Source of the DNA: Escherichia coli O157:H7
Lineage (GTDB): Bacteria > Pseudomonadota > Gammaproteobacteria > Enterobacterales > Enterobacteriaceae
Length of the DNA stretch: 64,000 bases
Direction: 5' to 3' (one strand)
Assembly (NCBI RefSeq): GCF_013167455.1
Contig: NZ_CP038328.1
A program made the position numbers. Every line of letters begins with the position of its first letter. Positions within the stretch are counted from its first letter, which is position 1. Shown piece by piece: positions 54,001 through 60,000 of this stretch.

Positions 54001-57000
54001 TAATCACAATGAGAATGAAAGTGTTGAGAGTGAAGAGAATGGTACCCACACTGAAAATATAAATAAAAATCACATTGCAAAAGGTATATTTACCACAAAG
54101 AATACATTACTTATAGTTTGTTTTTTTGCGGCATGGGGGATAGTGTATATATCTTCTTATTTTTTCGATATGGCTTTTCAAAGCAAATCCCACACTATAA
54201 AAAAAATAGATGCTTTCTCAAATTATGCTCAACACCCTACTCAGGAAGGATGCAGTTATTTCTATGATAATAAATACTTTAATTCCGTAGACATGTTATC
54301 ACCGATTATTGAAAAATTGCAGAAGATGGAAATTAACTGCAAAATACATCCTTACATTTACATTGCAACAAATGATAGCATGAGCGGATTTTATGCTTTC
54401 ACCTGTAGTCAGATGTTAAACTCTGAATCACCAAATAATTGCAACTCTCTCTATTATAAAGCGGAGTAATCATATGACTCAAAGATATTTTCTGTTTGCG
54501 GGAATAATTTTATGTGCTTTTATTGCAGCAATTCTGAGCCATATTGCGTTTCATCATGCCAATGAACCAGCAGAGCAAAACATATCATGTAATGCCCATG
54601 TTATTAATTTCACCGATCATACAAAAATGGATCAATATTTTTCGTTAAATATGATTTCTGAAAATAACACAGGAAACATGTATCTCACGGGCGCATACAC
54701 GGTAGATGGAAAAAAGATAGGCTTCATCCGCCGATATGTGAGTTTTACATACAAGAAATTCCGTGATACCGTTTACTTCACCACTGTTAAAATACAAAAA
54801 ATACAAAAAGATGATAACATTAGTGATGAAATCCTTGAAAATATCACTTCTGATTTTTTCATAAAAGTTGACACCTCAATTAATTTTTATGTTACACGTC
54901 AAAATGATTACAACTACGTATTCTCTACAGGCAGGACACCACGCTTCATATGTATTTCCCACTAACAGCATTGTTGCTCCTGGCGTTTGTCACCAGTTAA
55001 TAACCTTCTGATGGCTTTGTTTATATTTTAAGGCAATAAAAAACCATTCCAATATTGGTTAATTATTTATCTGTTTACATACCATTGATAAAACTCTGTC
55101 GCTTTCATTGGTTTTGCATATAAGTATCCCTGAACTAATGTCACGTTATTATGAATAAGATATTCCGCCTGGTGAGAGGTACTGACACCTTCTGCAATCG
55201 TTATCAAATTGAGTCGATTACTCAGCTTAATAATAATATCTAAAACAGGCGTTTCGTCTTCCGCTGTAGTGAGCGTGTCTATAAAGCTTTTATCTATTTT
55301 AAGATAATCAACAGACAACTTTTGCAGAAGGCCAAGGGAACAATATCCCGTGCCAAAATCATCAACTGCAAATTCACAGCCATGGCTCCTTAATTCATTT
55401 ATTTTCTGTAATGCATGATCAGTATCTTCAACCAGATTGCGTTCGGTAATCTCAAGGACAATGTTAAATTTATCAGATATTGCATTTTTTATATGTAAAA
55501 CATCAGCAACAAAATCAGGATGTGCAAGATGTTCAGCGGCAATATTTATCCCAAGGTGAAACGGCTTTTTCACTTTCCAGCTTTGTACATCCTGAATAAT
55601 CAGTTCAAAGAGATGCTTAGTTAACGGTATAATTAAATTTTCCTCTTCTGCAGCGCGGATAAAAACTACCGGAGATATATTTTTACCATCTTCGCGTTGC
55701 CAACGCATTAACGCCTCAACCCCCAGACACGCTTTGGTTGTCGTGTCACATACTGGTTGATAATGCACAGAAAATTCTCCGGATGACATTCCTTTCTTAA
55801 TTTCTTCTGCCAGGGACATTTTCCGAGATATCCAGCGCTGCCATAAGAAGTACAGGATAAAAGAAAGAAGAATAGATAATGGAAGAATGTAAAATACATT
55901 ACTAATGACATAGGGATATAATGAAATCATCGGCGTAGTAACTGTAAGACTAGCCTGACTGATCGCAGAATTAAAATCTTTTTTTAACATATATAACCTG
56001 TCATTATTATTTACACCACTAATAATTGCAGGCCCTTCAGTAAAGCGAAGAGAAAATGAATCATCATTCTCATCATCAAGAACATCCATCAGATCATAGA
56101 TATATCGTGACTCTACAATACTAAAAGCTGTCATATCATTCCCTATTGGCATAAGGAACACTATGGCTGTTTTACCTGGTACAAAACTTGTACCGCTAAT
56201 TGATACTATGCGTGATTCTTTATTTTTATTGTGAAAGCTCGTACCGTAAACATCGTTAACATTCATTTTTTTGAAACCGCTAACTGAAGAACATATTTGG
56301 AAATTATTTTCTATAAGACCCGTTGTTCGAACATAGGGGGTCAATGCTCCGTTAGCAATCAATTGTTCCAGGATATCTTTGCAGGGTTTCATCACCAGAA
56401 TAGAAGTAAGCTTTGTCGTATGTTTGACAATTTGCGTAACATTTTCAAGCTGTTTTAACAGAATACCGGCGGTAATTGTCGTATCTCGATTCATTTGAAA
56501 TACTGACATAGCAAACGACAGTAACCCCCCCAGAATGCCTGGTATTATAATGAGTACAAACATTTTTTTGTTGAATACCATACATGTTTCCCCACGCATC
56601 AGGGTGATGCAACCTAAGAAATTATAGTACAATTGCCAGTAAAAGCGGGTGATAGCAGACTGATCAATGATAAGCATTTAAGATCATATAGTACTATGAT
56701 ATTTCTGAAAATTGTTACGCATGTCTGCGAATAGCTATTTAGCGCTTACCAAAATCACCCGCTAAAATGCCGCTTTATGGTGACTCACAAAAATTCACCA
56801 CATCCCTCACAACCACCTTATTACGCCCGGTCTCTTTCGCCTCGTATAGTGCGTTATCAGCCAGTCGATAGATCTCATTCGGGTTTAACGCATTTCCCTG
56901 AGTCACAACAGCGCCAATACTAATCGTCACTTTTTGTGGTATAGCGTATTCAGGATTATCGCCAGTTAAACGCTCAACATTTTCCCGAATCCTTTCCGCT

Positions 57001-60000
57001 AAAGCTTTCGCACGTTCAGTATCGATGTCCGTCAGCAAGACGCCAAACTCTTCGCCGCCGACGCGCGCTAAAAGGTCATCTGGTCGTATGCTTTTCCCAA
57101 TGATATTCACCACTGTTTTTATCACCTGATCGCCAACCGGATGCCCCCAGGTGTCGTTGACTTTTTTGAAGTGGTCGATATCCATAATCATGACGCAATA
57201 AGGCGTTTTTTTGGCTGATGCTGATTGAACTGTCAGTTCATTAAAAAAATAATTTCTGTTAAATATATTGGTTAAGGGATCGCGATGTGCAATGTTCTTT
57301 GTTACTCGTAGCGCACTGAATATATGGCACATAAATATTACCATAACGGTTAACTTACTGACTACTTCAATAGTGCGACTAATATACCAAGTGGACACGC
57401 TATACCTACTCATAAATAACAGAGAGATATTGTACAGTACGGCACAAAAAGCAATCACCGTCACTCCATTCCAGATATCATAGCGTAAACCATTAAAGTA
57501 TAGATTAACCGAAAGCAAGGTTAACCACATGAAAATCATTATGGTAACATATGAGGCTTTCCAAACCACCTGACCATTTTCATTGGTTAACTCGGCAATG
57601 TGTAAATTGTAGCTCTCATAATGACTAGAAAGTATGTGAGCAACTATCGCCCCCCCAAAAACAAAAAACAAACTTATGCACAAAGTCATTTTTTTGGAAA
57701 ATAAATTGCGCTGTTTTGTGTTTTCACTAACTTTATTCACCAATGCCAGAAATATTAATATGCACAAACTCATCTGACGAAACAAATAATAGATTGCAAT
57801 GTCATTTTGGACAACACTGCTTGTCAAACGCCCCTCAATAATTTGCTGAATGATAATGACGGTTTTAACAAAGTAAATCAAACAACTCAGAAAAGCCAAA
57901 CTAAGTATACAGTTTGAAAATTGCCTACGGTCATAAATGAAATACAACTGCATAAAAATAAATGCAACAGTATCGATAAAAAATAAAGCAATCATTACCA
58001 TCAGATAGGTTGATCGTGGAACAACTTCCTCAACGCCTGGCTGATTAAACCAACTATTCACCAAAACCAAAGCAAGCCCAAACAATAAGCTCACTAATAC
58101 AGTACTACTAATTCTCAAATAGTCTTTTTCCATAAAGCTACACCAATCTGTAGGTTGTAGATCCCTTTCTATTATTAATAGATATAAGAACTGTACTGTT
58201 GTCAATATGAAATTCCGCCCACAAACAATACCGATGATGATAGTTGCTGAATGTAATTATTATTGCCTAAGTGCTTTATACATTGTTTGCAACAAGCCAG
58301 GCTTGAAAATACTTATAAATGGTTATAGAAAATCCTTATAAAACATTAATTCATAGATACATTAGGAATAACAATTAAATCCGTGAGTGCCGTAGCGCAG
58401 CCTTTCATCAGGACTTTCGAAAAATCCGAAATCATGCATCGGAATTTACTGATTTAATTATTTTAATCCTAATTTATTTTGAAAAAGGCATCGGGATTTA
58501 TGCCGTATTCCTGAAGATCCTCATCATTGGAATGGATTTTCGGGCGAGAAAAGGATTTTATATGGACACTCTGCTCATCATTTCTTCTTCTCATCATCAA
58601 CAATTCACGTCTCTCTTCCGCGTTTAATAACGGATTATGAGGTGCAAAAATATCTTTCTTTTCAGTTACCTGTAATTAGATACAGAGAGAGATTTTGGCA
58701 ATACATGGAGTAATACAGGATGTATTCAAGTAGCAGAAAAAGGTGCCCGAAAACCAAATGGGCTTTGAAACTTCTTACTGCCGCATTTTTAGCAGCGAGT
58801 CCCGCGGCGAAGAGTGCTGTTAATAACGCCTATGATGCATTGATTATTGAAGCTCGCAAGGGTAATACTCAGCCAGCTTTGTCATGGTTTGCACTAAAAT
58901 CAGCACTCAGCAATAACCAAATTGCTGACTGGTTACAGATTGCCTTATGGGCCGGGCAAGATAAACAGGTTATTACCGTTTACAACCGCTACCGTCATCA
59001 GCAATTACCAGCGCGTGGTTATGCAGCTGTCGCCGTCGCTTATCGTAACCTGCAACAATGGCAAAACTCGCTTACACTGTGGCAAAAGGCGCTCTCTCTG
59101 GAGCCGCAAAATAAGGATTATCAACGGGGACAAATTTTAACCCTGGCAGATGCTGGTCACTATGATACTGCGCTGGTTAAACTTAAGCAGCTTAACTCTG
59201 GAGCACCGGACAAAGCCAATTTACTCGCAGAAGCCTATATCTATAAACTGGCGGGGCGTCATCAGGATGAATTACGGGCGATGACAGAGTCATTACCTGA
59301 AAATGCATCTACGCAACAATATCCCACAGAATACGTGCAGGCATTACGTAATAATCAACTTGCTGCCGCGATTGACGATGCCAATTTAACGCCAGATATT
59401 CGCGCTGATATTCATGCCGAACTGGTCAGACTGTCGTTTATGCCTACGCGCAGTGAAAGTGAACGTTATGCCATTGCCGATCGCGCCCTCGCCCAATACG
59501 CTGCATTAGAAATTCTGTGGCACGATAACCCAGACCGTACTGCCCAGTACCAGCGTATTCAGGTTGATCATCTTGGCGCGTTATTAACTCGCGATCGTTA
59601 TAAAGACGTTATTTCTCACTATCAGCGATTAAAAAAGACGGGGCAAATTATTCCGCCCTGGGGGCAATATTGGGTTGCATCGGCTTATCTCAAAGATCAT
59701 CAGCCGAAAAAAGCACAGTCAATAATGACCGAGCTCTTTTATCACAAGGAGACCATTGCCCCGGATTTATCCGATGAAGAACTTGCGGATCTCTTTTACA
59801 GCCACCTGGAGAGTGAAAATTATCCGGGCGCGCTAACTGTCACCCAACATACCATTAATACTTCGCCGCCTTTCCTTCGGTTAATGGGCACGCCTACGAG
59901 CATCCCGAATGATACCTGGTTACAGGGGCATTCGTTTCTCTCAACCGTAGCAAAATATAGTAATGATCTTCCTCAGGCTGAAATGACAGCCAGAGAGCTT

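Follow-up and report, generated by a model that had tools for sequence, protein, structure and literature searches.

The EAL gene beside dgcT and pgaABCD in Escherichia coli O157:H7 is vmpA/pdeT, an apparently intact CSS-domain phosphodiesterase gene

Introduction

In Escherichia coli K-12, PdeC (YjcC) and PdeB (YlaB) are CSS-domain phosphodiesterases (PDEs) acting on cyclic di-GMP (c-di-GMP). A disulfide formed by DsbA/DsbB lowers their activity, and the free-thiol form is active and is processed by DegP/DegQ (PMC5897775). Herbst et al. (2018) counted PdeT/VmpA among the CSS-domain PDEs, as an extra member present in certain enterohaemorrhagic and enteropathogenic E. coli strains (PMC5897775). 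Richter et al. (2014) reported this extra PDE gene, vmpA/pdeT, directly downstream of ycdT and beside pgaABCD in strain EDL933 (PMC4287979). O-island 47 (OI-47) is 31,727 bp in size and spans z1528-z1556 (PMC8565820), and grvA is z1531 in the island (PMC10877973; PMC8565820). Here we analyze a window of 64,000 nt from E. coli O157:H7 (contig NZ_CP038328.1; positions given are window positions) in which a gene for an EAL protein adjoins dgcT (ycdT) and the pga genes. The gene is vmpA/pdeT (EDL933 Z1528), the first gene of OI-47. We consider it highly probable that this CSS-domain PDE serves as a general drain on c-di-GMP and that its adjacency to dgcT comes from genome history.

Much of this is established. 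The title of Branchu et al. (2013) names c-di-GMP hydrolysis by PdeT/VmpA, and papers citing that study place VmpA in OI-47, call it a c-di-GMP phosphodiesterase, and state that it affects biofilm regulation (PMC5635171; PMC4076661). According to such citing papers, mutation of vmpA increases biofilm and decreases motility (including PMC5635171; PMC4076661). One of them groups PdeT with PdeY and DgcX as further proteins of c-di-GMP turnover whose function in biofilms is proven (PMC5635171). The gene has been published previously, together with its place beside ycdT and pga, the class of enzyme that it encodes, and its phenotype in biofilm and motility, and the present identification is thus a rediscovery. 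It carries little weight as a discovery, and its value is practical.

Identity and catalytic residues of PdeT

Identification of the EAL gene as vmpA/pdeT follows from three points: the EDL933 gene lies immediately downstream of ycdT, OI-47 begins with z1528 and ends with z1556, and grvA has the number z1531. The EDL933 and window genes share organism, locus, domain class, and a position two genes from grvA, and nothing substantive differs between them. The window gene is 100% identical in DNA to that of O157:H7 strain ECP19-598 and 99.8-99.9% identical to those of many other O157:H7 chromosomes. O157:H7 record NZ_CP066753.1 also has 100% DNA identity, and there the gene is labeled “EAL domain-containing protein.” Among complete E. 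coli genomes, 414 of 5426 have the gene; one of the 414 matches sits on a record classed as a plasmid. The gene encodes the sixth CSS-domain c-di-GMP phosphodiesterase, which is carried by O157:H7, O55:H7, O145:H28, and some other E. coli.

PdeT contains a periplasmic CSS domain and a cytoplasmic EAL domain that covers the full Pfam model (Table 1). Residue numbers here follow the 536-aa RefSeq form. The periplasmic domain lies between two hydrophobic segments, at residues 31-62 and 253-280. An alignment of 18 sequences was examined, comprising the window protein and 17 homologues with 33-97% identity. C99, C129, and S130 are invariant in this alignment, and C129 is the cysteine of the CSS motif (C129-S130-S131). 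PdeT therefore has the layout of a CSS-domain PDE, with a periplasmic domain of ~190 residues between two transmembrane (TM) segments, two periplasmic cysteines (the second in CSS), and an intact C-terminal EAL domain.

Among the invariant columns of the EAL domain are E321, L323, and R325, which represent the EAL motif with its arginine, as well as E344, N378, E409 and E412 (ExxE), D439 and D440 (DDFGTG), K460 (KID), E496 (EGV), and Q516 (QG). We take these residues to be the metal-binding, substrate-binding, and general-base positions, going by the motifs of enzymes such as RocR and TBD1265. The closest solved relative of the domain is the EAL domain of Pseudomonas aeruginosa PA3825 (4y9o, 4y8e, 5mfu), which aligns with it end to end (4y9o, E=1e-43) and conserves all of the catalytic motifs. 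PA3825 is from another species, only its EAL domain has been solved, and outside the motifs the two sequences are distant. Judged from these alignments, the EAL domain of PdeT is apparently catalytically intact and not dead. An earlier note on this DNA had proposed an accessory, sensor-linked EAL phosphodiesterase, and it named degenerate EAL residues as one finding that would overturn the proposal. The protein is accessory relative to K-12, the CSS and EAL domains are both there, and the search for degenerate residues by alignment returned a complete catalytic set and both CSS cysteines.

A degenerate EAL domain, or one that is merely a c-di-GMP sensor or trigger and would oppose no cyclase enzymatically, is very improbable. 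Such a reading could draw on the sole deviation in the domain, which is EGVS where EGVE is usual, and on the match to NCBIfam NF007839 (PRK10551), which at 313.8 bits is under the equivalog cutoff of 461 bits. The closest homologues also have EGVS/T, however, and the position varies in the family alignment, while every family-invariant residue at a catalytic position is present; a dead EAL domain on account of the EGVS variant was therefore rejected. The full-length alignment to the PA3825 domain also speaks against degeneracy, and PdeT is called a c-di-GMP phosphodiesterase in the literature (PMC4287979; PMC5897775; PMC5635171).

Because its whole-protein score for PRK10551, which represents a CSS-type c-di-GMP phosphodiesterase of K-12, is below the cutoff, PdeT is a paralogue of the K-12 CSS-domain PDEs and not an equivalog. 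PdeC and PdeB have the same TM1-CSS-TM2-EAL order, both periplasmic cysteines, and a complete EAL site (PMC5897775), but they are paralogues and not orthologues of PdeT, which is absent from K-12. PdeY (SfaY) is, like PdeT, an extra E. coli EAL protein absent from K-12. The sfaY gene is part of the S-fimbrial gene cluster, and PdeY differs from PdeT in family and architecture. In contrast to sfaY, pdeT is outside the OI-47 fimbrial operon, about 3 kb away from it, beyond the gene for a short-chain dehydrogenase/reductase (SDR) and grvA.

Genome history of the dgcT-pdeT junction

Homology of the window to K-12 and most E. coli ends at 56764, which is 11 nt past the dgcT stop codon, and from there to 64000 the DNA identity to K-12 is 99.8%. 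The dgcT-pgaA intergenic region is conserved with K-12. The EAL gene is thus at the edge of an accessory block, as the earlier note had it, and is the terminal gene of a segment that genomes of the K-12 type lack (Table 1). Downstream of dgcT, K-12 MG1655 has the insertion sequence IS3D, a ymdE pseudogene, and ycdU, which agrees with what that note gave for K-12. Its description of dgcT as core is right in that the gene is widespread, but dgcT is not strictly core; 4255 of the 5426 complete genomes have the 3′ end of the gene. Junctions downstream of dgcT were counted in the same genomes (Table 1).

The IS3 junction has features of a deletion. Three-bp target duplications are absent: TTT is found on the dgcT side of IS3, and GTG (K-12) or GGC (UK_Dog_Liverpool) on the other side. 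The far end of IS3 lies within ymdE at two points, near 25023 in K-12 and at 25208 in UK_Dog_Liverpool, and the end on the dgcT side is identical. IS3 copies downstream of dgcT are at 10246-11503 of comparison locus L002 and 7538-8794 of locus L003. In the window, ymdE is full length (a 314-aa open reading frame, ORF) and contiguous with a long run of ORFs on the same strand.

Base composition does not change at the point where K-12 homology ends. GC is 0.33-0.41 without a break from about 52500 to 58999, across 56764, a tract that takes in grvA, the 163-aa ORF downstream of it, pdeT, dgcT, and the dgcT-pgaA intergenic region. The GC of dgcT (0.386) resembles that of pdeT (0.364) and not that of pgaA (0.473). 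The compositional boundary is therefore off the K-12 synteny boundary, since the AT-rich tract includes dgcT.

The lack of a target duplication, two end points in ymdE with a shared dgcT end, the full-length ymdE of the window, and the continuous low GC together suggest that the K-12 type (IS3 and truncated ymdE) is most likely the result of an IS3-mediated adjacent deletion of about 31.5 kb from a pdeT-bearing ancestor. The genes dgcT, pdeT, and grvA would then form one AT-rich stretch, and the adjacency of dgcT and pdeT would come from genome history. The earlier note had the EAL gene placed next to dgcT as an addition. This is probably not the case, as the K-12 type looks like an IS3 deletion of a segment containing pdeT. 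PNAG (poly-N-acetylglucosamine) and biofilm results from K-12 come from a background without PdeT, since the K-12 locus is a probable deletion derivative.

A different deletion is found in 27 genomes of the O145:H28 type (NZ_CP035772.1 and 26 others). It is a clean loss of 1,769 bp (window 56587-58355) that removes dgcT, the upstream region of pdeT with its Shine-Dalgarno sequence, and 222 bp upstream of dgcT. It leaves pdeT 311 bp from pgaA, and these genomes naturally have pdeT without dgcT. Natural variants with dgcT and pdeT, with dgcT only, and with pdeT only thus exist, and they could be used to test joint action of the two genes.

Other rearrangements were seen at the locus. In the CFT073/B2 type, which includes CFT073, Nissle 1917, and ATCC 25922, other sequence takes the place of the final ~34 nt of dgcT, so that the product has 455 aa, and ycdU, ymdE, and the whole of OI-47 are missing; the junction is at 8492-8579 of the CFT073 locus and corresponds to window positions 56808/56809 and 23565. 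In strain A16, IS903B (31492-32886 of its locus) joins a truncated haemagglutinin-like gene (~41842) to a fragment of an ABC-transporter permease gene (~28186). The OI-47 equivalent appears to be eroding independently across lineages, since it is partly deleted in A16.

Relation of PdeT to DgcT, PNAG, and O-island 47

C-di-GMP binds PgaC and PgaD, stabilizes PgaD, and allosterically activates the synthase, so that control is post-translational (PMC8461298). A statement in the earlier note that pgaA expression is c-di-GMP dependent is imprecise in this respect. DgcT has MASE4 (1e-68) and GGDEF (2e-50) domains by Pfam. It is intact, with eight hydrophobic segments, an RPDD I-site at 350, and GGEEF at 359, the I-site being five residues before GGEEF. 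Expression of ycdT is very weak, and an action of DgcT on the pga polysaccharide (PGA) was proposed from the divergent position of its gene (PMC4287979). In stationary-phase EDL933, Z1528 is RpoS dependent, its log2 value falling from 6.5 in the wild type to 3.3 when rpoS is mutated (9-fold), and it is the only OI-47 gene in the RpoS-dependence table (PMC2907692).

The most likely role of PdeT is that of a general c-di-GMP drain. If PdeT behaves like PdeC and PdeB, DsbA/DsbB would form a disulfide between C99 and C129 that keeps it in a state of low activity, and reduced PdeT would be processed by DegP/DegQ. PdeT would then be a stationary-phase drain gated by the redox state of the envelope. 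Every output of c-di-GMP would be lowered as a result, PgaCD-dependent PNAG synthesis and motility braking of the YcgR type among them, and PdeT would not be a private antagonist of DgcT. The downstream link of PdeT to PNAG is real, but it is general. Several points weigh against this account. The enzymatic activity and phenotypes of PdeT are taken from titles and secondary citations, and control by redox state and proteolysis has been demonstrated for PdeC and PdeB only. The polarity of the change (deletion versus insertion) is read from comparisons within E. coli. The absence of a terminator between dgcT and pdeT also makes read-through co-transcription possible, and hence some functional coupling.

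Two other explanations tie PdeT to particular neighbors, and neither is supported beyond adjacency; we favor the general drain. DgcT and PdeT could be a dedicated, local antagonistic pair beside pgaABCD that sets the c-di-GMP sensed by PgaCD and so tunes PNAG specifically, which we regard as unlikely. Both proteins are intact, both are in the inner membrane, and both are encoded next to pgaABCD; their genes are neighbors reading in the same direction, nothing resembling a terminator lies between them, and the adjacency seems to be ancestral and not a recent accident. PgaCD is a membrane c-di-GMP receptor (PMC8461298), and the proposal that DgcT acts on PGA (PMC4287979) fits the pairing as well. 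Conservation of the two genes, however, is not joint: the 27 O145:H28-type genomes retain pdeT with dgcT cleanly deleted, and about 3,700 genomes have dgcT but not pdeT. The nearest homologues outside E. coli are 51-56% identical (Enterobacter, Klebsiella, Citrobacter, Lelliottia, and Serratia), and at the six such loci examined no GGDEF or pga neighbor was found and contexts varied; the homologues of the first four genera count against the pair in this respect. Expression also differs, as Z1528 is RpoS dependent (PMC2907692) and ycdT is very weakly expressed (PMC4287979). The vmpA phenotype, as reported in the citing papers, extends to motility, and motility is an output of c-di-GMP at the global level. 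A literature search for papers naming both pdeT and dgcT found none, and no experimental link of PdeT to DgcT or PNAG was found in the literature.

Alternatively, PdeT could be part of an OI-47 module for adhesion and regulation (grvA, the FidL-like ORF, and the fimbrial operon), with the dgcT adjacency incidental; PdeT would then link the expression of adhesins to a fall in c-di-GMP, like other EAL genes within fimbrial or adhesin clusters. The chance of this appears small, and about the same as for the pair with DgcT. In all E. coli loci examined (O157, A16, and O145), pdeT is followed by the 163-aa ORF, grvA, the SDR gene, and the fimbrial operon. The neighbors of the Enterobacter hormaechei homologue are a fimbrial operon and a Trans_reg_C/FidL_like pair, a Citrobacter homologue is next to a gene for a 2,370-aa invasin-like adhesin, and fimbrial genes lie about 8 kb from a homologue named Klebsiella oxytoca (P0020, on a metagenome contig). 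Against this, neighbors at three of the six homologue loci are unrelated, tblastn at E<1e-5 matched the Enterobacter regulator pair to neither GrvA nor the 163-aa ORF, and the Enterobacter and OI-47 fimbrial proteins are only 30-35% identical, which indicates a different module. In addition, pdeT is convergent with grvA and is not in one operon with it, and no expression or phenotype link of the module to pdeT was found in the literature.

A variant of the pairing with DgcT is that dgcT and pdeT were an ancestral AT-rich two-gene module serving PgaCD, with a cyclase and a redox-gated PDE that are both in the membrane and act locally, broken by the IS3 deletion. We give this slightly less credence than either of the foregoing. 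If true, it would mean that the IS3 deletion hit the lineage from which K-12 and roughly half of the sequenced E. coli descend, it would explain why DgcT has stayed functionally cryptic in K-12 studies, and O145:H28 would be the reciprocal natural knockout with pdeT only.

Apart from these explanations, a mobile pdeT-grvA-fimbrial module shared with Enterobacter was considered and rejected; tblastn gave no similarity to GrvA or the 163-aa ORF, and fimbrial similarity was at the level of the family. The E. hormaechei pair is at 11852-13097 of its locus (L007), near the PdeT homologue, and has no detectable similarity to the grvA pair. The grvA gene and the 163-aa ORF presumably resemble the marT-fidL pair of Salmonella pathogenicity island 3.

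Translation start of pdeT and the spacer to dgcT

The RefSeq start of pdeT (ATG 56677) is probably 32 codons too far upstream, and 56582-56677 would then be spurious as coding sequence. Three features of the sequences point to M33 as the start. The 16 non-E. coli homologues in the alignment are 504-539 aa long, and all are without the first ~25-32 residues of the 536-aa form. A Shine-Dalgarno sequence, GGGGA, is at 56593-56589, 8-12 nt upstream of the M33 ATG. The O145:H28 deletion junction is 5 nt upstream of this ATG, and the ORF is kept there with all of the sequence before it replaced. The RefSeq start codon of the PdeT family is probably wrong, which bears on the design of expression constructs and on predictions of topology.

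Intrinsic terminators and promoters were sought in 54900-58800. No intrinsic terminator was found in the dgcT-pdeT spacer. Promoter-like matches were at chance level (15 found, 14.3 expected). A weak sigma-70-like match is in the spacer at 56711-56683. A candidate -10 element, CTATAAT, is at 56627-56621, inside the supposed N-terminal extension, and was not scored by the consensus scan. As speculation, it could belong to an RpoS-dependent pdeT promoter. No Rfam RNA family was matched in the pdeT-dgcT region.

The spacer also has a perfect 10-nt inverted repeat, AGCGGGTGAT / ATCACCCGCT, at 56644-56653 and 56754-56763, the arms being separated by 100 nt. The outer arm stops exactly at the final island-specific base, beside the break in K-12 homology. 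The repeat may be a product of chance, as ~0.1 such repeats are expected per 500 bp.

Other features of the window

Coordinates of the features are collected in Table 1. The EAL gene adjoins dgcT, with pgaA divergent, which bears out the layout given in the earlier note. RefSeq lists in order a filamentous-haemagglutinin-like gene, a chaperone-usher fimbrial operon, the SDR gene, the winged-helix regulator, the 163-aa ORF, and the EAL gene, and beyond it dgcT, pgaABCD, phoH, and efeB. The ORF holding dgcT (56775-58205, minus strand) is longer than the RefSeq coding sequence (CDS). In the pga operon, pgaB comes after pgaA. Both grvA and the 163-aa ORF (53657..54965, plus strand) are island genes convergent with pdeT; the ORF begins 4 nt after grvA and has no Pfam match, even at E<=1.

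Table 1. Features of the 64,000-nt window and junction types downstream of dgcT in complete E. coli genomes
Feature	Position	Strand	Genomes	Evidence or remark
Segment absent from IS3-type genomes, OI-47 equivalent, ~31.5 kb	25209..56763	.		Comparison of loci L002 and L003 with the window by blastn
grvA (z1531), ToxR/MarT-like winged-helix regulator	53657-54469	+		Pfam Trans_reg_C
163-aa ORF downstream of grvA	54474-54965	+		Orthologue labeled “FidL-like protein” by RefSeq in an O145 record
pdeT/vmpA (EDL933 Z1528)	55067..56677	-		536 aa per RefSeq; ORF list, Pfam CSS-motif and EAL
Probable true pdeT CDS, 504 aa from M33 (ATG 56581-56579)	55067..56581	-		Homologue lengths, Shine-Dalgarno sequence, O145 junction
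Cytoplasmic EAL domain (residues 291-523)	55109..55807	-		Pfam PF00563, 6e-66, full model
Periplasmic CSS domain (residues 63-222)	56012..56491	-		Pfam PF12792, 8e-14
dgcT-pdeT spacer	56582..56774	-		Terminator/promoter scan and sequence reading
K-12 homology boundary (right edge of OI-47)	56763..56764	.		Genome comparisons
dgcT (ycdT)	56775..58133	-		RefSeq CDS, 452 aa; MASE4 and GGDEF by Pfam
dgcT-pgaA divergent intergenic region (pga control region)	58134..58719	.		Coordinates from ORF list and RefSeq
pgaA, first gene of pgaABCD	58720..61143	+		NCBIfam PgaA equivalog, 1457 bits (cutoff 1043); RefSeq
Junction dgcT-IS3 (K-12 type)			2293	IS3 abuts exactly the 56764 point
Junction of CFT073/B2 type			1431	dgcT 3′ end replaced from 56808, joined to integrase-proximal region at 23565
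Junction dgcT-pdeT			383	

No tRNA was found in the window by ARAGORN; in K-12, serX has ycdU on one side and ghrA on the other. An Rfam match to the 5′ ureB small RNA (sRNA) is at 1631-1909 (plus strand, 86.5 bits), in the left part of the window. The large ORFs around it are, by their size and this match, presumably urease genes, and window 1-23500 would then be the tellurite/urease island OI-48. An RtT-like sRNA is annotated in a RefSeq record at the equivalent of window ~23,400-23,500.

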